Under the pieces are notes generated by a model. It was not told the origin of the DNA. It was given only the letters and a program-made list of their open reading frames with translations, and did no database searches. The position numbers and the translations under genes were made by a program. This document shows positions 318 to 51,571 of a DNA stretch of 64,000 bases, in pieces (within the stretch, counting starts at the first letter, position 1; every line of letters starts with the position of its first letter). This stretch comes from Planctomycetota bacterium (GTDB lineage Bacteria > Planctomycetota > Phycisphaerae > UBA1845). Location: positions 49 through 64,048 of the forward strand of contig JAJRWX010000005.1 in NCBI GenBank assembly GCA_024276605.1, written 5' to 3'.

Positions 318-2801
318 TTATGGAGCTGCACACGGGCTGGCATCCGCGCAGTCAAAACTGCTGAGGAACAATCCACCGATGATCGTGCATTCGGTGTTGT
401 TAGCCTCTTGGCAGCTTCCATCAGGCATACAGCAGGCGCGCACCGGTAGCAGCGGGCCGCAGGTGTCAGTGTCGCACGCCTGTCCCCCATAAAACGTGCC
501 GTTAAAGCTCGTGCATGTGGATTGCGACAGCATGACACACACGCCACTTGGCATGCAGCAGGCGCTCGACGGTGGATCGTCGAGATCGCAGTTATAGAAA
601 CACGCCAATGTGCATGGGTCGCAGTTCAGCAGGAAGTCCCAGATCAGTAATGCGATTAGCACCACGGCGCCCACCGCGGCAATAGCCATCACCGCACTGG
701 CCGCTATTGTCAGCGTTGTGATCGTGCCTATTTTGAGGATGAAGGCGCCGGCTTGTACGGCAAAGATAGCTGCACTGGCGATCGTAAAACCATCGCCAAG
801 CACACGGCGGGCGATGTTTGTGGTGGCGACTTTGGGCTTGGCATGGGGCCTGAGCAGGCTGCTCTTGGCAAACGGATCATTCAGAGAGCCGATGGCTTCC
901 TCCCCGCGCATGACACGGGCAAACCGGCCAGGATTGGCGGCGATCCAAGAGCGGATAACGGAGGCATCCAAGCCATTGATAGGCTCAATTTCATCAATCG
1001 CAGCGACGATGCCCGTATCGGACAGGTCAAGCGCCACCGTTTCCAGCGTTGTCTCGCCATTGATTGTGATGGCCAAACTCACGGTACTGGAATCGTCCGC
1101 CCAGTTGAGTTGTAGTTGTAGATCGGAACCGGAGATTGTCGTCGGACGAAAACGCTCGTCTACAGTCATTTGCACCTTACCCGCCTCGGAAACGATGTCG
1201 AGTCGTGCAATAACGCCCGCTTCTTGCAGAACCGTCACCGCCATACCTGCCTCGTCGTCTCGATAGACAGCTGCAATTTCGTCGAGCGGATTAGTGATGA
1301 CGGCCAGTGTTCCGGACGGGATATCGCCTAGGCTGTTTCGGGCCGTGGCTTGATAAGGTGTGAACGACCACTCGCCAAGCTCCCACTTACCGTGCAGCAG
1401 GCCGCCATCGAGCACCACCTCGCCTGTCCAGATCAGCCGGTTAGTGGGATCGTCTGCGGGATACCATTCTCCGACGAAGTGATCACCCTTCCATGCTGCT
1501 TCAATAACGAATTCGGTGCCATCCTCTGTCGTGCCCTCCACAAGGAGGTTTGCACCATCGAACGAAACTACGGATTGTCCAATCGTTTGCGCGGGATCAG
1601 AGGGTGTCTGGTAGTCTGTCGAGACGCTGCTCCACTCGGCGGTCAGATCGAGGTCATCGGTGGAAGCCACCTTAGCGAAGCCGAAACGTCGAGCACGGTC
1701 GCCGTTCCAATATCCGTGGAGAATCTGGCCGGTCGGGTCCAGCGTGCCGGACCACTGGAAGCCGGACTCGTCTGTGCTGGTGAACATACGACCGTCGTAA
1801 GTTGCCAAGACAGACCAATAGCCGCCCTCGTTGTAGTCACTGGAGAACAACACGCGATGGTCATCGTCACGCTGATGAACGTAGAGATTTGTGCCATCAA
1901 ATATCAGCGATGCCTGTCCGCGAACCGTCACGGTATTTTCGCCGTTGTTTTGGCTACTCATCCACCGACCGGTTATAGCTGTATCGAGAACGCTTGGCTC
2001 ACCTTGACGCTGTAGCGATTGCTGCTCGATGAAAGTGCTGAATTCCTCAATCCAAACGAAAAGCTGCTGATCGGCCTCGACGAGCGCCCGCCATTGGTAA
2101 CCGTTATCCGTAGTACCGGAAAAGACCTTCAGATTGTCATCCCACACGGCGGTGAAAGTAGCTTGTGCGTCATCGGGATCGAGCACATTGAGCAGGCGAC
2201 CATCAAACGCCATGATCCTACGAAACGCCCCTGCTTTAGCGTCCGTCCATTCACCGATCAAGCTGGGCGACGGTTCGAAGGAACGTTGCAGCATCCACTG
2301 CCGATCACCCCCGCTGAGAGTGAGCATGCGACCATCTTCCGAAAACGTGCCAACGCACTCGTCTGGATCGTCGAACAAGTCGTTGATATCGAAGTTGTCG
2401 CCGGAGAGTGATGGGCTGCATGTACCGCGTATGACGGCGCCGTCCCACGCGCCGGAAAACGACCACGAGCCGCCATCGTCCTCGCGAATATCGAGGAACT
2501 GATCCTGATCGAATGCAGTCCCCTGGCCCAGCCCACGAAGCGTCGTGCCTCCGTCGATGCGCTGGCTAATCCAATACCCTTCAGTAGTCGCAGCTAGTGG
2601 AGGAGCAGAGGCATCGTCGTCATTTTGATTCTGGTTGTCGTTCTGATTATCGTTGACATTGTCGCTGGAGTCGCCATTGGGCGTGGGCGTTGGTGCCTTG
2701 CAGCCATTGGAAAGCGCTCCCTGAGCGGCCACGAAAATTATAAGTGACAGGACGCGGAGCACGCGGTTACGAATAGTGTCGGGTGTGAACCAACCAGTCA
2801 T
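318..2801 (-). CDS. Large exported repeat protein with a lipobox N-terminus, a C-terminal hydrophobic pair and a tandem Cys-rich module
   Basis: 827-aa ORF. The signal peptide ends in an LSNGC lipobox and is followed by an Asn/Asp/Gln low-complexity linker. W/G-rich beta-like repeats follow (FQWSGTLDP, LHGYWNGD, LHGKWELGEW). A long hydrophobic stretch precedes two ACCMPxGxC...C...G.F...C...C repeats at the C-terminus. I did not recognise a family. Confidence 0.7.
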   Translation of the reverse strand: MTGWFTPDTIRNRVLRVLSLIIFVAAQGALSNGCKAPTPTPNGDSSDNVNDNQNDNQNQNDDDASAPPLAATTEGYWISQRIDGGTTLRGLGQGTAFDQDQFLDIREDDGGSWSFSGAWDGAVIRGTCSPSLSGDNFDINDLFDDPDECVGTFSEDGRMLTLSGGDRQWMLQRSFEPSPSLIGEWTDAKAGAFRRIMAFDGRLLNVLDPDDAQATFTAVWDDNLKVFSGTTDNGYQWRALVEADQQLFVWIEEFSTFIEQQSLQRQGEPSVLDTAITGRWMSSQNNGENTVTVRGQASLIFDGTNLYVHQRDDDHRVLFSSDYNEGGYWSVLATYDGRMFTSTDESGFQWSGTLDPTGQILHGYWNGDRARRFGFAKVASTDDLDLTAEWSSVSTDYQTPSDPAQTIGQSVVSFDGANLLVEGTTEDGTEFVIEAAWKGDHFVGEWYPADDPTNRLIWTGEVVLDGGLLHGKWELGEWSFTPYQATARNSLGDIPSGTLAVITNPLDEIAAVYRDDEAGMAVTVLQEAGVIARLDIVSEAGKVQMTVDERFRPTTISGSDLQLQLNWADDSSTVSLAITINGETTLETVALDLSDTGIVAAIDEIEPINGLDASVIRSWIAANPGRFARVMRGEEAIGSLNDPFAKSSLLRPHAKPKVATTNIARRVLGDGFTIASAAIFAVQAGAFILKIGTITTLTIAASAVMAIAAVGAVVLIALLIWDFLLNCDPCTLACFYNCDLDDPPSSACCMPSGVCVMLSQSTCTSFNGTFYGGQACDTDTCGPLLPVRACCMPDGSCQEANNTECTIIGGLFLSSFDCADASPCAAP

Positions 2802-3009
2802 AGGCCTACCTCCCTAAAAGTGAAGAGGATGGCCAGTCAAGCGATTTCCACAGATGCGGCGGTCCTCTGTCGAACGCGCAAGTTGCAGTTTACGTGCCAC
2901 AGTCCGTAGTGGACCAGCGATCGGCACGTTGATCTCCTATATTTCATCAACCACGTTCAACAACTCCCGTCGCGGAAATGTTAAAATAGGCGAATTCACG
3001 CAAACGCCG

Positions 3010-4113
3010 TCACTCTGGATAGTCGGGTGGTGGGATGTCTGTCAGGCGATCGAGCGGGCGGCGGCTGACGTAGGGGACGAACCCATTGGTGACCGCATTC
3101 TGATAGGCTTCGGAGGCGTTGTCCGGCTTGCTTGCGTAGTCCACACACAACACCGGCTTGCCCGCATCAAGGTAAATCTTAAGCCAGTCCTCGTAGTAAG
3201 CGCGGCTGTAGCCACACTCCGCATCGTCAGCCGGACATACATCCTGAACGCGGTGGTCTCCTGCATCAGGCTCATTCCAATCAGTATCCGCATTGCCGTC
3301 GAAGTATATCTGCTCTTGGGCGATACCGTCGATGATGTCGAGGTACGCCTGGCCACCGAACTCCACAATCTCAGCCGCGTTTTGTGGGATGACCAGGAAG
3401 CCAGGGTTCTGCGCTCGCGCGAATTGACGTATCTCGCTAATGAAGTCGATCATCTCCTGAGCGAGGTTCAGCCCTTCATTTTCCGCTGCCATCATAACCG
3501 ATGTGTCGGAGTAGGCCTCGACCCAGTCCATATAGATGCCGTCGAACCCGTCGTCCAGTACCTGCTGAAGCACGCTGTTTTTGCCTTGTATCATGATCTC
3601 TTTCCACCGCTCGTCCCAGTAAGCCACTGGGAAGTTGCCGGCCCAGCCGTCCGGGTCAATAGTGATCAGGAAGTCGGGGCTGCCGATTTCGCCCCCTTTG
3701 GGTGCCACCCAATCGGCAGTCCAATACGTTCGCCAGTCCTCGGCCTGACCAATATCGATATAGGCGACGACGAGTTTGGTTCGATCCGGCACACTTGCCG
3801 ACGACTTGTGTAAGCGCTCGACCATGCCAGCCGTGTTGAACTCAGTGTTACCTCGATCGGATCGCGTTGGCTCAAGCACAACGAGGTCGTAGCGAGAGTT
3901 GACCAAGGCATCAATGGCTCCATCGGCCTCTATTTTTTGAATCTGATAGGCCCAGAATTGTACCTCCGGCAGCGTCATGCGTGTGGCAGGTCCGGTCTGG
4001 TTGTCGCTAGCATCGCCACTTCCTCCGGTTTCAACGGAAGGACAACCACCGGCGAGCGAGAGGGAAAGCAAAAGTGGAAGAAGTCGAACGGAACCGTATC
4101 GTCTAAACAGCAT
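3010..4113 (-). CDS. GH114-like / TM1410-MJ1477 family putative glycoside hydrolase (lipoprotein)
   Basis: 367-aa ORF. The signal peptide has an LAGGC lipobox. Motifs WAYQIQ, VVAYIDIGQAEDWRTYW, VAYWDERW and DGIYMDWVE match the TIM-barrel GH114/TM1410 pattern as I remember it. Confidence 0.7.
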   Translation of the reverse strand: MLFRRYGSVRLLPLLLSLSLAGGCPSVETGGSGDASDNQTGPATRMTLPEVQFWAYQIQKIEADGAIDALVNSRYDLVVLEPTRSDRGNTEFNTAGMVERLHKSSASVPDRTKLVVAYIDIGQAEDWRTYWTADWVAPKGGEIGSPDFLITIDPDGWAGNFPVAYWDERWKEIMIQGKNSVLQQVLDDGFDGIYMDWVEAYSDTSVMMAAENEGLNLAQEMIDFISEIRQFARAQNPGFLVIPQNAAEIVEFGGQAYLDIIDGIAQEQIYFDGNADTDWNEPDAGDHRVQDVCPADDAECGYSRAYYEDWLKIYLDAGKPVLCVDYASKPDNASEAYQNAVTNGFVPYVSRRPLDRLTDIPPPDYPE

Positions 4114-4580
4114 GTCTCATCTCCCTATCAAATCGAGGCGCCATTGCTGGGCAACCTATCCGATTCTGCTATAGGACGCTAGGTGCAAGCCTACGGCGTT
4201 CAACTGTACGGCTTAGCAGATGTATCGTCACGGGCATAATAGCAATGAATAATAGGGATAGTCTCGAATGGCACTGCCGTTTGTGCAGTAAAGACTTACA
4301 TCGTTTATGTCCGTTGCTCCTTTGCTTTAGGTGGGCGAGTTTCGAGACAACACTCGATAATCTAACCTAAGGAGTAACGGGCTTGCATCCCCATCTACGG
4401 GCTTGATTCCCACCTGCGCGGAAATGACGAGCGCCTACGTGGGAATGACATCACATAGTCTAGAAGTGCCAAACAAATCCAACTGCAGAAAATAACGTAG
4501 ATCGATCAGGCAACGTGCAGTACAATGAGTTATGCTGTAACCTGTGTGGGCATGGACTTATAGACCACCCTTAGCGGACA

Positions 4581-7294: not shown

Positions 7295-10200
7295 GTGGCG
7301 AAAAAATCACAACCTTCCGGTAAATCGCTGGTTATCGTCGAATCCCCAGCCAAGGCGAAAACTATAAACCGATATCTAGGCGATGGGTACAAAGTCGTGG
7401 CCAGTTTCGGACATGTACGTGATTTACCCGCTCATGACCTCGGTATCGACTTCGAAAACAACTTTGAGCCGGTATACGAGGTGCTTGCTGCCAAACGAAA
7501 AGTCGTCAATTCCCTCAAAAAGCTCGCCAAAAATGCCCCTACCGTCTATCTGGCAACCGACCTGGACCGCGAAGGGGAAGCTATCGCATGGCATCTGGTT
7601 TCTGCCCTGGAATTGGAACACCAAGCCACCGAACGCGTTGTTTTCAATGAAATTACAAAGTCGGCCATTCAAGACGCTTTTGCTCACCCGCATCAACTCG
7701 ACATGGCCAAAGTCAACGCCCAGCAGGCACGCCGCCTGTTAGACCGCATAGTGGGTTATCAATTAAGCCCTTTGCTCCAATCGAAAATTGGTAAGGGACT
7801 TTCTGCCGGGCGTGTGCAGTCCGTGGCTGTACGCCTGATTGTCGATCGAGAGCGTGAAATTCGTGCCTTTATCCCGAAAGAACATTGGCGTTTGCATGGC
7901 TGCTTTACTACCGATCTCGCTAAACTGGAGAAGCTTTCCGGGGCCTGGACTAAATTACTCGCCAAAAGTGAGAAAACAAAGTCCGGACTCACCGTCAAAG
8001 CGCGTAACAAATGGCTAAGCGAACATGAATGCCTCTACGCGGAATTAGCCTCATTAAACGGAAAGCCGTTCAAACCCACTAACGTCAACCAAGCCAAGGA
8101 AGTCGCCGAGCATCTTGGCCTGGTCGTAAACCAAGTCGAGGAATCCGAGTGGGAAGAATATGCCAAGCTCGGACTAAAACGGACCTCGATCATCGGGTCT
8201 ACCATGGCGGGCAAAGCTCCCTCCTTTGAAATCTCCGAAATACAAAAACGTCGCACCAAGACCAAGCCCAACGGGCCGTTTACCACAGCCTCTTTACAAC
8301 AAGCTGCCTCAAGTGAACTGGGGTTCTCACCATCACGCACTATGCGCGTCGCGCAACAATTATATGAAGGTATCGATTTCGGCGGATCAGAAGGCCCGGT
8401 CGGCCTGATCACTTACATGCGAACCGATTCGTATAACCTAAGCAAAGATTCCGTATCCGCTGCCAGGAATCTAATCAGCAACGATTTCGGTGATAAACAT
8501 CTGCCGGCAAAACCCAATGTTTATGGTAGCCGCAAACGAGCCCAAGAGGCCCACGAAGCCGTTCGCCCCTCCGACGTCACCATGCGCCCGGCAGACATCA
8601 TGGCTCATCTTTCTGCAGAACAAACCAAACTATATGGCCTCATTTGGCGGCGATTTGTCGCCTGCCAGATGACACCCGCCGAGTGGGACAGCACCACGGT
8701 GCTCATCAAAGCACCTACCCCCCAGGGCGAAGCCATATTCCGTACCACTGGTCGAAGGCTTGTGTTCGATGGTTTTCTTCGCGTGATGGGACAGCCCGAC
8801 ACCGACGATGTCGTCCTTCCGGCACTAAAAGAAAAGCAAGAACTTGGTCTGCTTCAACTCAAACCGGAGCAACATTACACGACACCTCCAGCGCGATACG
8901 GCGAGGCTTCACTGGTTAAAAAAATGGAAGCAGAAGGCATCGGTCGCCCAAGTACGTACGCCGCCATCATTCAAACGATTCAGGATAGACAATATGTCGA
9001 GCTGATTGACAAAAAATTGCACCCTTCCCCCATTGGCGAAGTTGTCACTGATAGTCTGATCGAACATTTCCCCAAAGTCATGGACTTCAAATTCACCTCG
9101 TTTATGGAGGAAGAACTGGATAAGGTTGAAGAATCGAGCGTCGAATGGCAACACGTTTTAGGTGAATTTTACACGCCGTTCAAAGCTGCGTTGGAAAGCG
9201 CGGGAGCGAACATGCAACGCGCTCGTTCCCAACCCAGTGAATTCATCTGCCCAGAGTGTGGGCGAGAAATGGTATATCGTATTGGCAAAAAGGGCCGCTT
9301 CCTCTCCTGCTCCGGCTATCCCAAATGCAAAGTAGCCATGAACATCGACGCCGATGGACAACCCGTAGCCGATGTCGTAGCCGAAGAACCGTGCCCTAAG
9401 TGCGGCAAAGAACTCATCCTCCGCAAGAGTCGCATCGGACCATTCCTCGGTTGCACCGGCTACCCGGAGTGCAGCCACACGCAGCCTTCGGACGAAAATG
9501 GCATCCCGTTGAAAAAAGTCAGCGCAGAAGACATCAAAGAAACCTGTCCGGACTGCAAATCGGAAATGACGGTCAAATTTTCACGAGGCCGATCGTTCCT
9601 CGGCTGTAGTGCCTACCCCAAATGCAAAGCCACCCAACCGCTGCCCGAAGGTGTATACGTCGAAAAACCCAAACCGGCAGAAGCCGGCGCACGCTGTGAC
9701 AAATGTGGCCGAAACATGGTCATCCGCACCGGTCGTCGTGGACCATTCTTGAGCTGCTCAGGATTTCCGCGTTGTCGAAACGCCATGCCCATGGAAAAAA
9801 TTGACCACCTGCGTGCGCTGGAGGAAGCCGGCGAAATTCCCGAAGCGCCGCCTGATAATGGCAAAACAGGTAGCGCTAAAGCCGACGTGCCGCGCGACAA
9901 GAATGGCAAGGTTGATATAGCTGCGATGGGGCCACCACCGCCCGGATTTGCTTGGACTAGAACAGGTAGACCCGTGGTGGAAACCTGGCCCCAGGACACG
10001 CTCGAATGCCCGGAATGCGGTGGAGAAGTAGACATGAAAACGGGGCGCTTCGGCCCGTACTATGGCTGTACTCGCTTCCCTAAATGTCGCTTTGTCTCTA
10101 ACCTGCGCGGAGCCGCCAAGAAACGCGCCGAGATTGAATTCCCCACAGCCGCCAAACCAAAGCCCATCCCCACAGACATCCCCTGCGATGAGTGCGGTGC

Positions 10201-46178: not shown

Positions 46179-47570
46179 TCATGGCATTGGCAGCACATCT
46201 GCCTGTATGGCCATATTTTCTGTGGAGATGCTTTTTTCAAGGTTCCCAGTAGCCCGGTCCACAACATTTTCATAACGAGCGCGGAATTGATACGGGGTCA
46301 TCTTGGCTTCGTGAGATAAGGCGGCAAGCATCGTAGGGGATTCAAAATCCGCCGGCTCTGGTCTGATCATGTAGGCGCGGGCCACCTTATAAGTATAGCT
46401 TTCCAAATCTACCGTTCGGACCCGCGTCCGATTCGTCTTCGGATCAATCATATCATTGAATGGAACGGGGACTAAGTTGCCACCCTGCAGCGTCACCATC
46501 ACGCCGGGCGGCAGATCGGTCGTCGAATCCAGCAAAAGCCTGACGCCACCGTGTCCTAAGTCTCGCGTATAGGCCATGTCAGACGAAGCGGGCCTGGCAC
46601 ATCGCAGTTCATAACCCAGGTTTTGAAATACAATGGTCACACGATCTTGGCGCTGTTCAAATCGTTTCGTTAATTCATTCTTGAGAAGCTGACCTAACGG
46701 CACTTCGGCGAGCCGAACGTGGCCTGCGGCATCGACTGGAATTTCTCGTCCGAGTAATTTTTCCAGTTCCTTCCGATCACCCAGCTTGTACGCCAGACCT
46801 TCTGCCAGGACGGCTACGCCATCATGACGGCCCATCACCCGACGTTTGAGTATCGCGACTTCCAATATGTCTGCCAATTGTTTGACGCTGGTGGATTCTG
46901 GGAATTCTTCGGGGATAATCGTCAGCGTAGCCCCGGCGGCCTTGCCGATACCAAGTGCCAGATAACCGGCATTACGCCCCATAGTCACCACGATGTACCA
47001 TCTCCGGGTTGTTCTGGAATCCTCCATTAAATTAGCAACGATCTCGGAGCCTAGATGGCGTGCTGTGGCGAAGCCGAAGGTGGGGATGTCGCCCGGTAAC
47101 GGTAAATCGTTGTCGATAGTTTTAGGTACGTGAACGACATGAATGCTGCCGCTAGAAACCTCAGCCACAAAGCGAGCGCTTAGTGCAGTATCATCACCCC
47201 CGATAGTGAGCAAATGTGTGACGCCCAGAGATTGTAATCGTTCGCATACGCGCAGGGTCTTTATCGGGTCCGGCTGCGCTTGAACGGATGTGGAAAGCTT
47301 ATCTGCATCCAACAGACTGGTCCGCGCGGTTCTCAGTATAGACCCGCCGCTGAAATGAATACGAGCCATATCCGCGATAGTTAGTGGTATGACGTGCTCA
47401 TCGGGATCAAAATCCTGGTCTGCCAAGTGAGAAAACCCGTCATAAAAACCCAAGACCTTCAGACCGTTATTGACCGCTTCAATCGCAGCAGCACCAATCA
47501 CACCGTTGATACCCGGTGCAGGACCACCGCCAACAATAATACCCATCGTAGAATTTTGCATTGCCATCAC
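46179..47570 (-). CDS. pfp: Pyrophosphate-dependent 6-phosphofructokinase (PPi-PFK type by motif)
   Basis: It carries GGGPAPGINGVI, TIGGDDT and PKTIDNDL. The Asp in GGDDT and the Lys in KTIDND are the residues associated with PPi rather than ATP use. Confidence 0.85.
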   Translation of the reverse strand: MMAMQNSTMGIIVGGGPAPGINGVIGAAAIEAVNNGLKVLGFYDGFSHLADQDFDPDEHVIPLTIADMARIHFSGGSILRTARTSLLDADKLSTSVQAQPDPIKTLRVCERLQSLGVTHLLTIGGDDTALSARFVAEVSSGSIHVVHVPKTIDNDLPLPGDIPTFGFATARHLGSEIVANLMEDSRTTRRWYIVVTMGRNAGYLALGIGKAAGATLTIIPEEFPESTSVKQLADILEVAILKRRVMGRHDGVAVLAEGLAYKLGDRKELEKLLGREIPVDAAGHVRLAEVPLGQLLKNELTKRFEQRQDRVTIVFQNLGYELRCARPASSDMAYTRDLGHGGVRLLLDSTTDLPPGVMVTLQGGNLVPVPFNDMIDPKTNRTRVRTVDLESYTYKVARAYMIRPEPADFESPTMLAALSHEAKMTPYQFRARYENVVDRATGNLEKSISTENMAIQADVLPMP

Positions 47571-48436: not shown

Positions 48437-48960
48437 GCTTTTCAACGAGTCAACCGCGATCAGAATAGCCGGTAGTGGCCGCCCAGATGGATCATCGCGG
48501 GTATCGTCGTCGGGCAGTGCCCGACCTACAAGGCTTGGTTTTTCAACGAGTCAACTGCAGTCGGGCATCGCCCGACGATGGATCATCGTATGCCTAGATA
48601 ATCATTGCGGAAAAAAAGTCGGGTAGTGCCCGACCTACGATACTCTCCTTAGAATTCAAAACGCAACAACTCACAGGCTGCGAATACCAAGAAGCCATAG
48701 TCTTAGGGCACCAAGGCTTGTCAGGTTTGCTTTCCTATCCGACAATGCGACGTGAGGGACTGATGTCGTTGAAGAACATCAACCCTTGGCTAGAGCAATG
48801 CGTGTTTTCGTGTTACTGTCGTAGGCACTATGAATCATGTATTCATCCGGTGTGTCCGCACGAACTAAAGCATGCGGCTCGCTTCACAGTAGGTCGGGCA
48901 CTGCCCGACGATGGATCATCATAGGCATCGTCGCCGGGCAATGCCCGACCTACAAGGCTA
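48437..48960. repeat. Cluster of REP/BIME-like palindromic units (GTCGGGCA-nn-GCCCGAC cores)
   Basis: Palindromic cores lie at 48509-48525, 48560-48576, 48618-48634, 48893-48909 and 48933-48949. They share the flanks gatggatcatc and cctacaaggct, plus the repeated ttttcaacgagtcaac. The ORFs called across this region are repeat read-through. Confidence 0.7.
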
Positions 48961-49061
48961 GAGCAAGCGCTACTGGAGTTGAGCGCTGTGGAGTAGGTTT
49001 ACTCCAGCGTAATGTATGTGATGATAGGACGGCAGCGCAAAGTACGCAGGGAGGCACAGTT

Positions 49062-49259
49062 ATGAGCCAATCCGGCAAAGAGTGGTTTGTTGAACAATTC
49101 CATTTACAAAGCCCCATCGAGGAATTCCAAACGCATTGCCGCTTGGAGATAGAACGACTACGGAAGGACAAGTCGGATTTCGACGAGGGCAGTTACCGTG
49201 AAGCGATCCATCTGGTCATGGAGCGCTTGCGCCCCGCGGGAATAGGCAATCAACCATGA
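49062..49259 (+). CDS. 65-aa hypothetical protein, translationally coupled to the SMC-like ATPase
   Basis: The ATG at 49062 lies 8 nt after GGGAGG. The longer ORF from 48837 runs through the repeats and is rejected. The product is MSQSGKEWFVEQFHLQSPIEEFQTHCRLEIERLRKDKSDFDEGSYREAIHLVMERLRPAGIGNQP. Its stop overlaps the next start (ATGA). Confidence 0.5.
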   Translation: MSQSGKEWFVEQFHLQSPIEEFQTHCRLEIERLRKDKSDFDEGSYREAIHLVMERLRPAGIGNQP

Positions 49260-51571
49260 TCCTAAAACACATTGAAGCGGAAAATATTCTCAAATATCAG
49301 CGACTCAAACTCACGGACCTTCCTGAGCGTGGACAGATTGCCGTCTCCGGCCTAAATGAATCGGGTAAGACCGCCATCGGAGAGACAATTTGCCTGGCCT
49401 TGTTCGGTCGGACCTATTCACTCGACTCGAATGAACTGCACAAGGTTATTCGTTGGGGTGAATACTCGGGGTATGTGCGCGTGGATTTTGCCGGCTGCGA
49501 TGGTCGCACCTATCGTATTGTGCGCAAGTTGGATAACACCGGCAAACACGAAGCCGAACTTTTTCTTGACGGCAACCGAACACCCACAGCCCAGGGCGTG
49601 GATGAAGTAGCGGATACAATTCAGAAGGTGACGGGGTTTTCGTATCAGAGTTTTGTCGATAGCTTTTATCTGGCGCAACGGGAAATCGAAGTACCCCATA
49701 GTAAAAGTGCCACTGTTAAGGCATTGATCGGTGTCGACAAGTTGGAATCCGCTGCTACTTATCTCAAGCGTGAGCAAACAGAATTCACCAACGCCGCACA
49801 AACACTTGAGGGTGATATCGACAAAACCAGGCAGGCTGTACGCGATATTAATCTGGATCGCTCCAAGTTAGGTAGGCTCGAATCACAGCGTGAAACCGCC
49901 GTATCTGCAGCCGCTGAAGCTGCACAGACCGCCTCGGATTTGACTAACGGTGCAGCTGCGATCGGTAAAGCCACTACGGCATTTGAACAGGCATCGACGG
50001 CTTTTGCACAAAGTTCCGTAGAAACCAACTATGCCCAATGGCGAAACCGTCGTCAGTCGTTGGATACATGCTTGGCGGTAGCATCCAAAGCGTCTAAAGC
50101 GACGGGCTTAGAGGTTGGCGTATCTGCACTGTCGAATACGTCTGAAACTATGCAAGCCTTTGATGTGGGGCTAGCAGAATATGATAAAGTGGCGGACCTG
50201 GCTGGTCGCTACAAGCAACGTTTATCCCACCGTTTGCAGGAAACTATAACACCAACAACCAAGGCCACGATCCAGGACATTACGACAAGGGCCACGGATG
50301 CTAGATTTGCTGATTTACGTCATGCAGCCACACTTAGACTCGAAGAACTCGCCAAACAACGGAGTATGTACATCGGCTCAGTTGTATTCGTCGCACTAGT
50401 ATCCGTGAGTACCTGGCTATGCTGGGGTGCCCTGCAATCTTGGCCCGACACAGCATTAGCCGGTTTTTTAACCGGTATCATTCCCGTAGCAGATGCGACA
50501 CGTCGGGTGATCCTGTTGATCGGCGGCATCGTCGGCACGATTACCACCGCCGGTTTAGTGGCGTTATGCGTGCGTGCTATCCAGCGCATCAAAGAATCTC
50601 AACAGCATCTTGAGCAGATCCAGACGGAAGAGCAAATTGCCCGTACCGAGTTAAACGTCATTGAAGCCATCGACGAAGCCACACTACCCAAGGCTATTGA
50701 AGCCCTTCGCGGGGTACAAAACGATCTGGTCAACAGCGCTGCTGCGTCATTTTTAGATAGTCAAGGCGCTATCCTTATTAAACCGGACAACCTGTCCGAA
50801 AAGTTGAACGAATTAAAACGTGGTAGCGGTCGAGCGGTGTCATCACTCAAGCAAGGACAAGACCGCATCGCGCAACGCGCTGCCCAGGCCAGTGCACAAG
50901 CGGAACAACACCGCCGACAAGCGGCTATCCTGGACGAACAAATCACCGAAGAAAAAGCGATGTGGGATAAAGCCGAGGCGCTGGAACGTGCGCTGGCTGA
51001 TCTGGAGGCTCAGACTAAGCAGCTTCGACGCAATGTTCAGGTTCGCAAGCTGTCTTGCGAGCTTATCGAAGGTGGATGTCGGCGCATCTATGCTCGATTT
51101 GAACCGGAGTTAAGGCGTTTCGTAGGAAAAATTCTCCCACACCTGACCCAAGAAAGATATGAACACCTGGAAATTGATGACGACCTGCACATCCGTGTAT
51201 TTTGCAACAAGAAAAACGACTTCGTCAGTTTGTCTGAAATTTCCAACGGAACGCATAGACAGTTAATGCTCAGCGTTCGCTTAGCCTTGTCGCAAGCGCT
51301 CATCGCGTCTTCAAATAATACGGCGCAGTTTATTTTCTTTGACGAGCCGTTCGCCTTTTTTGACGAGCAGCGGATGGCCAAGGCTATCGAGGTGCTACGC
51401 CGGATCAGTCCGCAGCTTACACAGGTTTGGCTCGCGGCTCAAAATTTTGAAAATGTATCCAGCTTCGACCTTCTCTTGAACTGCACCGTTGATGGCCATG
51501 TGCTCGAAGTCTCTGGAAAGCCGGCTAGACGCTCCCGCTCGTCTCAAGCAGCAGGTACCACGACCGCGTAA
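49256..51571 (+). CDS. Rad50/SbcC-like ABC ATPase with a long coiled coil interrupted by a transmembrane hairpin
   Basis: 771-aa ORF. Walker A is SGLNESGKTAIGE, the Q-loop-like segment is FYLAQRE, the signature-like segment is SEISNGTHRQL and Walker B is FIFFDEPFAFFDE. About 550 aa of Ala/Gln/Glu-rich sequence lies between the head halves. Two hydrophobic helices (MYIGSVVFVALVSVSTWLCWGAL and VILLIGGIVGTITTAGLVALCVRAI) sit at the midpoint. Confidence 0.8.
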   Translation: MILKHIEAENILKYQRLKLTDLPERGQIAVSGLNESGKTAIGETICLALFGRTYSLDSNELHKVIRWGEYSGYVRVDFAGCDGRTYRIVRKLDNTGKHEAELFLDGNRTPTAQGVDEVADTIQKVTGFSYQSFVDSFYLAQREIEVPHSKSATVKALIGVDKLESAATYLKREQTEFTNAAQTLEGDIDKTRQAVRDINLDRSKLGRLESQRETAVSAAAEAAQTASDLTNGAAAIGKATTAFEQASTAFAQSSVETNYAQWRNRRQSLDTCLAVASKASKATGLEVGVSALSNTSETMQAFDVGLAEYDKVADLAGRYKQRLSHRLQETITPTTKATIQDITTRATDARFADLRHAATLRLEELAKQRSMYIGSVVFVALVSVSTWLCWGALQSWPDTALAGFLTGIIPVADATRRVILLIGGIVGTITTAGLVALCVRAIQRIKESQQHLEQIQTEEQIARTELNVIEAIDEATLPKAIEALRGVQNDLVNSAAASFLDSQGAILIKPDNLSEKLNELKRGSGRAVSSLKQGQDRIAQRAAQASAQAEQHRRQAAILDEQITEEKAMWDKAEALERALADLEAQTKQLRRNVQVRKLSCELIEGGCRRIYARFEPELRRFVGKILPHLTQERYEHLEIDDDLHIRVFCNKKNDFVSLSEISNGTHRQLMLSVRLALSQALIASSNNTAQFIFFDEPFAFFDEQRMAKAIEVLRRISPQLTQVWLAAQNFENVSSFDLLLNCTVDGHVLEVSGKPARRSRSSQAAGTTTA

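Follow-up and report, generated by a model that had tools for sequence, protein, structure and literature searches.

A Rad50-like ATPase family with a predicted transmembrane apex and a translationally coupled 65-residue partner protein in Planctomycetota and other bacteria

Structural maintenance of chromosomes (SMC)/Rad50-type ATPases are central to chromosome folding, to repair and, more recently, to immunity, and the modules at their apex, i.e. hinge or zinc hook, are viewed as soluble devices for dimerisation. A two-gene operon in a 64,000-nucleotide (nt) stretch of DNA from a Planctomycetota bacterium (contig JAJRWX010000005.1; the whole stretch is referred to as the window) raises the question of what such an ATPase might be when its apex is hydrophobic and the gene in front of it encodes a protein of only 65 amino acids (aa). 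The operon is self-contained, as read from the open reading frame (ORF) listing and the raw sequence; it occupies positions 49062-51571 of the plus strand and encodes the small protein followed by a 771-aa ATPase. Judged from sequence, the pair appears to represent a distinct, widespread family of Rad50-like ATPases with a transmembrane apex and a new small subunit.

Relatives were collected by scanning one genome per GTDB species, and residue conservation was read from a family alignment of 70 homologues. A preliminary description of the locus had recognised the motifs of a split head near both termini of the ATPase; these are conserved in the homologues and align with the motifs of M. jannaschii Rad50 (5f3w) in a hidden Markov model (HMM) alignment, and the motifs for ATP binding and for ATP-sandwich dimerisation all appear to be intact (Table 1). 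The suspected replacement of the H-loop histidine was also borne out, in that the invariant Q729 pairs with the first histidine of THH, i.e. the H-loop histidine of the M. jannaschii protein. In Pfam, the window ATPase matched AAA_23 above the cut-off and SMC_N and SbcC_Walker_B just under theirs, and this trio was present in 17-18 of 18 relatives. With the family profile, archaeal Rad50 heads were the best matches in the PDB (E = 1e-37), SbcC and Smc5 being much weaker; the best PDB matches of the 771-aa protein were archaeal and fungal Rad50, and Foldseek ranked Rad50 first (7zr1, 2e-17; 3auy; 5dny), followed by MukB, Smc5/6, SbcC, LmuB and JetC. An AlphaFold2 (AF2) model computed from the 70-sequence alignment (predicted local distance difference test score, pLDDT, of 82) comprises a head that is rich in beta structure and split in two (aa 2-104 and 638-753), with very long helices between its halves, and the N- and C-terminal thirds of the protein are thereby modelled as one Rad50-type ATP-binding cassette (ABC) head. 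The scores against the curated NCBIfam models remained far under the cut-offs (Rad50 equivalogs, 61 bits versus 700; TIGR00618 sbcc, 35 versus 478.5). The large protein is, as had been proposed, an SMC-type ATPase of the Rad50/SbcC kind, and it is not a canonical member.

The sequence between the two head halves is helical, as described before, whereas the length first given for it (about 550 aa) had to be corrected: the helical and transmembrane part comprises about 470 aa (aa 160-630), and the distance from Q-loop to signature about 517 aa. Two helical arms of about 200 residues each (about 30 nm if fully extended) link the head to the apex. At the apex, the two hydrophobic helices noted at the midpoint (about 23 aa each, about 25 residues apart) were located by Kyte-Doolittle analysis at approximately aa 371-393 and 418-439, with 24 residues between them. 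On a Hessa-type insertion scale, these segments scored -0.5 and +0.95 in the window ATPase (19-residue sums; next-best segment, +8.8), and the two best 19-residue windows had family medians of -1.0 and +0.6 (third-best on average, +7.1), so that both segments score as transmembrane family-wide. In 68 of the 70 homologues, the middle of the protein contains exactly two hydrophobic segments whose flanks carry 4-5 Lys/Arg, and the loops between them (5-31 residues) are neutral or acidic. Since the flanks are rich in Lys/Arg, the positive-inside rule fits a topology in which both arms would be cytoplasmic and the loop periplasmic. Among 18 diverse full-length members R369 is invariant and P397 nearly so, and in the AF2 model each hydrophobic segment is continuous with its arm helix (H351-395 and H413-471). 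A CxxC zinc hook is absent from the entire window protein, and the single homologue of 70 with CxxC in its central 40% represents a chance match; similarly, no Pfam match to an SMC hinge domain was obtained in the window protein or in 18 relatives. The apex is thus predicted to be a transmembrane hairpin, as a trait of the whole family.

The arms contain a further conserved element: the C-arm insert (aa 472-509) lies opposite the N-arm break at aa 252-290, which carries the invariant W262, and the two may make up a module resembling a joint or elbow, at a distance of about 30-70 residues from the membrane. This region is missing in the forms of about 600 aa.

Whether the small ORF is kept next to homologues of the ATPase, a point raised in the preliminary description, could be decided from 74 loci usable for an upstream-gene test. 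A homologue of the small protein (jackhmmer), on the plus strand, ends at the ATPase start in 68 of them, and 44 of these 68 share the identical 4-nt overlap of the two genes; short-armed ATPase variants (about 600-700 aa) are also preceded by the small gene. Reverse look-ups from three distant small proteins led each time to an ATPase in 4-nt overlap, the downstream genes being AAA_23 ATPases of 700-750 aa or contig-truncated ORFs. All marks of the proposed family, i.e. two mid-protein transmembrane segments, a glutamine H-loop and an overlapping upstream helical protein of about 65 aa, were found. In comparison with an 84%-identical relative, 24 codons of the small ORF differ by synonymous changes only and 4 by non-synonymous ones, and the DNA 5' of the ORF cannot be aligned, a pattern that indicates a genuine gene under purifying selection. 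The data argue for the 65-aa protein as an obligate, dedicated and translationally coupled partner of the ATPase.

The partner belongs to a family of 81 clusters at 90% and 299 at 50% identity; the best 150 of the 299 representatives are all 57-119 aa in length with none fused to a larger protein, and members are called 'hypothetical' where the source gives a name. The proteins are typically acidic (median isoelectric point, 5.2) and share the core pattern F..EF....E..R.R....FDE....EA..LV..KL. The AF2 model of the 65-aa protein (pLDDT 78) contains helices at aa 5-12, 18-35 and 42-56, of which the latter two form a helix-loop-helix core. No Pfam matches were obtained for it, and its best matches in the PDB were at chance level for both fold (Foldseek, E = 5.6) and sequence (HMM, E = 0.055). 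The earlier suggestion of a novel small partner, and of a membrane-tethered SMC-like machine to go with it, is upheld by the conserved hairpin, the strict co-occurrence and the coupled overlap.

Relatives of the ATPase were found in at least 474 species-level genomes, with carriers in Phycisphaerae/Planctomycetota, Binatia, many Gammaproteobacteria (Chromatiales and allies), Magnetococcales, Desulfobulbaceae and others. Endothiovibrio diazotrophicus is a cultured carrier (WP_459866965.1); the Magnetococcus matches are from metagenome-assembled genomes. This distribution bears on the view that the ATPase is an orphan or decaying SbcC/YhaN homologue after loss of its nuclease, with the small ORF present by chance or as a lineage-specific gene. 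The source databases, in which relatives are annotated as 'SbcCD ATPase subunit' or 'AAA family ATPase', would agree with it. Set against these names are catalytic motifs invariant across phyla, a pair retained with a shared overlap and under purifying selection, the number of species with a relative, and the finding that the family has neither the zinc hook nor the AAA_27 signature nor, in any clade, an adjacent nuclease. Decay is to be considered most improbable, and the conservation data already contradict it.

One clade of short-armed ATPases (about 600 aa) has an additional gene directly 3' of the ATPase, which it overlaps or abuts. The gene encodes a conserved protein of 64-65 aa with two hydrophobic segments and the motif F.RALAFS.IGAA..G..A.W.G (locus L079, 7800-7994; L088, 5795-5989; L089, 5773-5970), and the resulting three-gene module lies between rnb and hrpB; the window ATPase is without an equivalent downstream gene.

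The family resembles several known systems in part. With Rad50/SbcC it shares the head (Walker A, Q-loop, signature, Walker B and D-loop), for which the best sequence and fold matches were obtained, as well as a long intramolecular antiparallel helical arm and the Pfam domains AAA_23 and SbcC_Walker_B. The differences concern the apex (CxxC zinc hook there, transmembrane hairpin here), the H-loop (His there, invariant Gln here), the nuclease (Mre11/SbcD usually adjacent there, adjacent in 0 of 74 loci here), the missed score for the curated families, and the 65-aa partner, which is obligate and belongs to an unannotated family.

The Pfam family AAA_27 (PF13514), which we take to be the N-terminal AAA domain of YhaN-type proteins, gave no match to the window protein at E <= 1 and matched one of 18 close members at 1e-3, with marginal matches near the cut-off in some distant or short forms. 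A literature search for transmembrane or membrane-anchored SMC/Rad50-like proteins returned the paper on SbcE/YhaN alone (PMC2811018). SbcE of B. subtilis is an SbcC-like protein of about 106 kDa without CxxC, and its central domain is hydrophobic and insoluble and contains a conserved proline. The protein functions in the repair of double-strand breaks as well as at the competence pole, and is encoded beside, and interacts with, the Mre11-like nuclease YhaO/SbcF (PMC2811018). Its family, which occurs in Gram-positive bacteria, is defined by this SbcD-like partner. Compared by description, the likeness lies in the hydrophobic domain between two long heptad regions, in which a proline is conserved (here P397), whereas the carriers here are diderm, have no such nuclease, and have the 65-aa partner instead. 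SbcE/YhaN is hence the nearest characterised analogue, and it is the sole characterised precedent found for a hydrophobic apex.

The SMC-kleisin complexes (Smc-ScpAB, MukBEF, Wadjet JetABC) have the same layout of head, arms and apex, with Foldseek matches to MukB, Smc5/6 and JetC, and by analogy their small partners may sit, as here, near the head-proximal coiled coil; the hinge domain and the kleisin and KITE (or HAWK) partners present there are absent here, and a 65-aa partner is too short to bridge two heads. Lamassu LmuB and the MADS proteins mad3 and mad8 are likewise SMC/Rad50-like ATPases (weak PADLOC matches; Foldseek matches to LmuB structures), and a small accessory subunit is also used by Lamassu, whereas no LmuA, LmuC or multi-gene MADS genes are adjacent here and a defence or mobile context is lacking; to our knowledge, a transmembrane apex is not a feature of Lamassu. 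The ATPase would thus work like a Rad50/SbcE-type protein, yet it is a member neither of Rad50/SbcC, SbcE/YhaN and SMC-kleisin nor of Lamassu, because it has no nuclease, no convincing AAA_27 domain, a different partner, and carriers in other phyla. A description of the pair was not found in the searchable literature; it is possible that it was catalogued in the 2020 classification of ABC ATPases. We regard the chances as about even that the pair stands for an undescribed and phylogenetically broad class of SMC-like machine, nuclease-free, with its apex permanently in the inner membrane and with a dedicated 65-residue subunit, which may be a core chromosomal system coupling DNA or an ATP-driven cycle to the membrane in Planctomycetota, Binatia, Chromatiales, Magnetococcales and other diderms.

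The genomic context was examined for further partners. No nuclease, kleisin or HNH gene adjoins the pair in the window, and annotation of the window neighbours yielded none of the partners whose absence had been reported (SbcD/Mre11, kleisin, MukEF/JetAB-like, HNH). Among 1105 flanking ORFs of the related loci, the motif trio D.H / GD / GNH(D/E) of an Mre11/SbcD/YhaO nuclease was detected once, 1.8 kb away at a single locus, and metallophosphoesterases were absent from the Pfam-annotated contexts of relatives; homologues are hence not routinely placed beside such a nuclease, which had been named as a possibility. All-against-all clustering of the 1105 flanking ORFs revealed no third gene common across clades. 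Neighbour clusters that recur at multiple loci represent within-clade synteny with housekeeping genes, as identified from representative sequences: acyl-CoA dehydrogenase, SDR, luciferase-like monooxygenase and MurI in Binatia (the locus is shared by about 16 genomes), LysA and DapF in one clade of Gammaproteobacteria, and valyl-tRNA synthetase or a glycosyltransferase, the latter directly downstream, in the clade of the window. A conserved third gene for the whole family was considered and rejected, the flanking clusters being clade-limited.

This context decides to a large part on a second explanation, that the pair is an anti-phage or anti-plasmid defence system in which the ATPase would sense foreign DNA near the membrane and the hairpin would serve as an abortive-infection effector, with the small protein as inhibitor or adaptor. 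Defence systems commonly have transmembrane effectors. SMC-like ATPases, furthermore, are recurrent defence sensors (review PMC10586767), the window ATPase has weak PADLOC similarity to mad3 (2e-16), LmuB (3e-14, 51 bits) and mad8, and one distant member (L086) has genes for a 1296-aa SNF2 helicase and for a 563-aa protein without annotation as its neighbours. The PADLOC matches, however, are limited to generic head regions, with no LmuA, LmuC or MADS partners adjacent; the context is one of housekeeping genes in stable within-clade synteny, as in the Binatia genomes; a defence-profile search of the window neighbours gave no matches; G+C content is uniform across the region; and searches of 72,556 plasmids and 50,697 phages revealed no family member. 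On this context the defence role considered in the preliminary description was rejected, and we hold it to be improbable.

The reading that we favour, with confidence a little short of even, is a nuclease-free, ATP-gated clamp that would hold chromosomal or incoming DNA at the inner membrane, with the small acidic subunit at the basic base of the coiled coil. Two ATPases would dimerise head-to-head on ATP, as is general among Rad50/SMC proteins. Their apices would lie fixed in the inner-membrane plane, where lateral packing may occur through the small-xxx-small motifs of the second transmembrane helix, and the dimer would form an ATP-gated clamp or ring with one side closed by the membrane. 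The hook of Rad50 and the hinge of SMC proteins are reported to be interchangeable as dimerisation modules (PMC6969161). Because the H-loop histidine is replaced by glutamine, hydrolysis might be slow and switch-like, which would give a long-lived clamp, not a fast motor. Degenerate ABC sites such as that of TAP1 provide an analogy. DNA capture or tethering appears to be the likeliest task because the pair lacks a nuclease and has a housekeeping chromosomal context.

For the small protein, translational coupling would provide a fixed ratio to the ATPase, and as an acidic helix-loop-helix protein it would most likely dock on the base of the C-arm or on the head, where it could regulate head engagement. 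The docking idea stems from the acidity of the small protein and from the C-arm base (aa 596-632), which is strongly conserved and is the sole net-basic soluble segment of the ATPase (median charge, +4; conserved basic residues R597, R609, R614, R620 and K625). This base presumably corresponds to the docking site of the Mre11 helix-loop-helix domain on Rad50 and to that of kleisin N-termini on SMC necks. The basic C-arm base could instead be a DNA-contact surface.

Several observations weigh against such a clamp. Conserved basic residues are few in the strand-loop-helix region, and since the lobes of the head are net acidic, DNA binding by the ATPase is only putative. No DNA-metabolism genes are conserved near the pair, and SOS (LexA) boxes were not enriched (3 of 68 upstream regions versus about 1.7 expected), in a test with the E. 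coli-type motif that is weak because LexA motifs differ between phyla. The topology is derived from hydropathy scales and the positive-inside rule only, and both the near-invariant proline in the periplasmic loop and the added protein with two transmembrane segments in the short-form clade hint that the membrane part may do more than anchor.

Some of these points would suit a membrane or envelope mechanotransducer or scaffold with no role for DNA, in which ATP-driven head engagement would be passed through rigid arms to the hairpin and loop, similar to mechanotransmission ABC systems such as FtsEX or MacB, or in which the complex would organise membrane domains or structures. Such a function would be compatible with the acidic head lobes, in which no conserved basic DNA-binding cluster was identified, with the proline in the loop and an AP(D/E)S..AGWL-type motif conserved within the Phycisphaerae clade, with the extra membrane protein encoded directly downstream in the short-form clade, and with metabolic or envelope neighbours such as the glycosyltransferase directly downstream in the window clade. 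Elaborate internal membranes, furthermore, are a trait of the lineages of many carriers (Planctomycetota, Chromatiales, Magnetococcales), which is a weak point in its favour. The head, on the other hand, is specifically of the Rad50/SbcC kind, and the characterised members of that clade all act on DNA; the periplasmic loop has just 5-31 residues and is poorly conserved between clades; and precise transmission of force is hard to reconcile with arms that differ in length from clade to clade (proteins of about 600 to about 770 aa). We consider a mechanotransducer unlikely, though deserving of some weight.

A widespread family with a transmembrane hairpin as its apex would be a natural system for the study of DNA-membrane tethering in bacteria, an old and poorly resolved question, and would show how a coiled-coil ATPase behaves with one end fixed in the bilayer. 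The reach of the family across several phyla, in housekeeping contexts, adds to its interest, as does an unannotated small-protein family whose sole known context is the ATPase, and the neglected hydrophobic central domain of B. subtilis SbcE/YhaN may be illuminated as well. The system is testable because at least one cultured carrier exists (E. diazotrophicus).

Table 1. Positions of the features of the operon and of its upstream region in the window
Feature	Position	Strand	Basis
Five copies of the 17-nt palindrome GTCGGGCANTGCCCGAC in a 687-nt intergenic region	48509..48953	.	Repeat scan; 0.02 expected by chance
Shine-Dalgarno GGGAGG, 7 nt 5' of the small-ORF ATG	49049..49054	+	Raw sequence
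Small subunit gene, 65 aa, ATG start	49062..49259	+	ORF listing
Membrane-anchored (predicted) Rad50/SbcC-like ABC ATPase, 771 aa	49256..51571	+	ORF, Pfam, PDB profile, AF2, Foldseek
ATGA stop/start overlap (translational coupling)	49256..49259	+	Raw sequence; same 4-nt overlap in 44/68 homologous loci
Walker A, GLNESGKT, aa 32-39	49349..49372	+	G32, N34, E35, G37, K38 invariant (70 homologues); aligns with Rad50 Walker A
Q-loop, FYLAQRE, aa 137-143	49664..49684	+	Y138, L139 invariant; Q141 at least 90% conserved; aligns with Rad50 Q-loop
N-terminal coiled-coil arm, aa 160-368, helix breaks near 199-201, 252-258, 283-288, 328-350	49733..50359	+	AF2 secondary structure
Predicted transmembrane helix 1, aa 371-393, after invariant R369	50366..50434	+	Kyte-Doolittle and Hessa-type scans; kept in 68/70 homologues
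Short predicted periplasmic loop, aa 394-417, near-invariant P397, short helix aa 400-408	50435..50506	+	Alignment, AF2
Predicted transmembrane helix 2, aa 418-439, small-xxx-small GGIVG and AGLVA	50507..50572	+	Hydropathy and insertion scans
C-terminal coiled-coil arm, aa 441-630	50576..51145	+	AF2
Conserved non-coiled-coil C-arm insert, aa 472-509, LP.A..ALR.V.NDL..SA..SF..G.GA.L	50669..50782	+	Conservation; three short helices in AF2
Signature-like motif, SEISNGTHRQL, aa 660-670	51233..51265	+	S663, G665, Q669 invariant; aligns with Rad50 LSGGE
Walker B and D-loop, FIFFDEPFAFFDE, aa 692-704	51329..51367	+	D696, E697, P698, D703 invariant
H-loop position, VWLAAQNF, aa 724-731	51425..51448	+	Gln729 invariant (70 homologues), replaces His

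The strong ribosome-binding site and the stop/start overlap of the preliminary description were both read in the raw sequence at the positions listed. The ORF list also gives an in-frame 140-aa version of the small gene (48837-49259) from an ATG further upstream, which crosses the palindromic repeats; the start at 49062 is favoured over that at 48837 because of the Shine-Dalgarno site and the length of about 65 aa of nearly all homologues. Automated annotation could wrongly call the 140-aa form, and the source assembly appears to use the 65-aa form (P0298). An exact-sequence look-up of the window ATPase among recorded contigs returned no match.

The dense palindromic repeat cluster ahead of the pair is present as reported. 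The copies of GTCGGGCANTGCCCGAC are perfect or near-perfect and lie inside repeat units of 21-50 nt, some as inverted pairs. None was found in the rest of the 64-kb window or in 78 related loci including the 84%-identical relatives, and Rfam gave just sub-threshold, microRNA-like hairpin matches to the region. A conserved regulatory or RNA element of the module was therefore rejected, the palindromes being absent from all 78 related loci, and the cluster is a strain-specific intergenic feature outside the conserved module, possibly a local expansion of the repetitive extragenic palindrome/miniature inverted-repeat transposable element (REP/MITE) kind, or transcription terminators or insulators.

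The neighbours of the operon in the window encode a cupredoxin, a pyrophosphate (PPi)-type phosphofructokinase, a LuxR regulator, a GT4 glycosyltransferase, a PEP-CTERM protein, a hydrolase, a DUF547 protein and UDG; those in other loci include phosphofructokinase, fructose-1,6-bisphosphatase, phosphoribulokinase and PstS. Phosphofructokinase is encoded on the opposite strand, about 1-2 kb or less from the pair, in the window (46179-47570, minus strand) and also at no fewer than three gammaproteobacterial loci (L024, L028 and L084); it is the sole neighbour that recurs across phyla, and the recurrence may be a coincidence.

The distant member L086 (702 aa, weak AAA_27) has a context that is less housekeeping-like than that of other loci: the SNF2-family helicase, a 68-aa ORF and the unannotated protein are encoded on the same strand, with flanking coordinates of 502-4392 and 7308-8999. 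At four loci of one gammaproteobacterial clade (L038, L050, L054 and L074), the ATPase stop is followed by a lipoprotein-like ORF of 39-43 aa (M..L..L.GCGQKGDLY) and then by lysA and dapF; this ORF, which we take to resemble LptM/YifL of the E. coli yifL-dapF cluster, probably belongs to the lysA-dapF cluster and not to the ATPase module.

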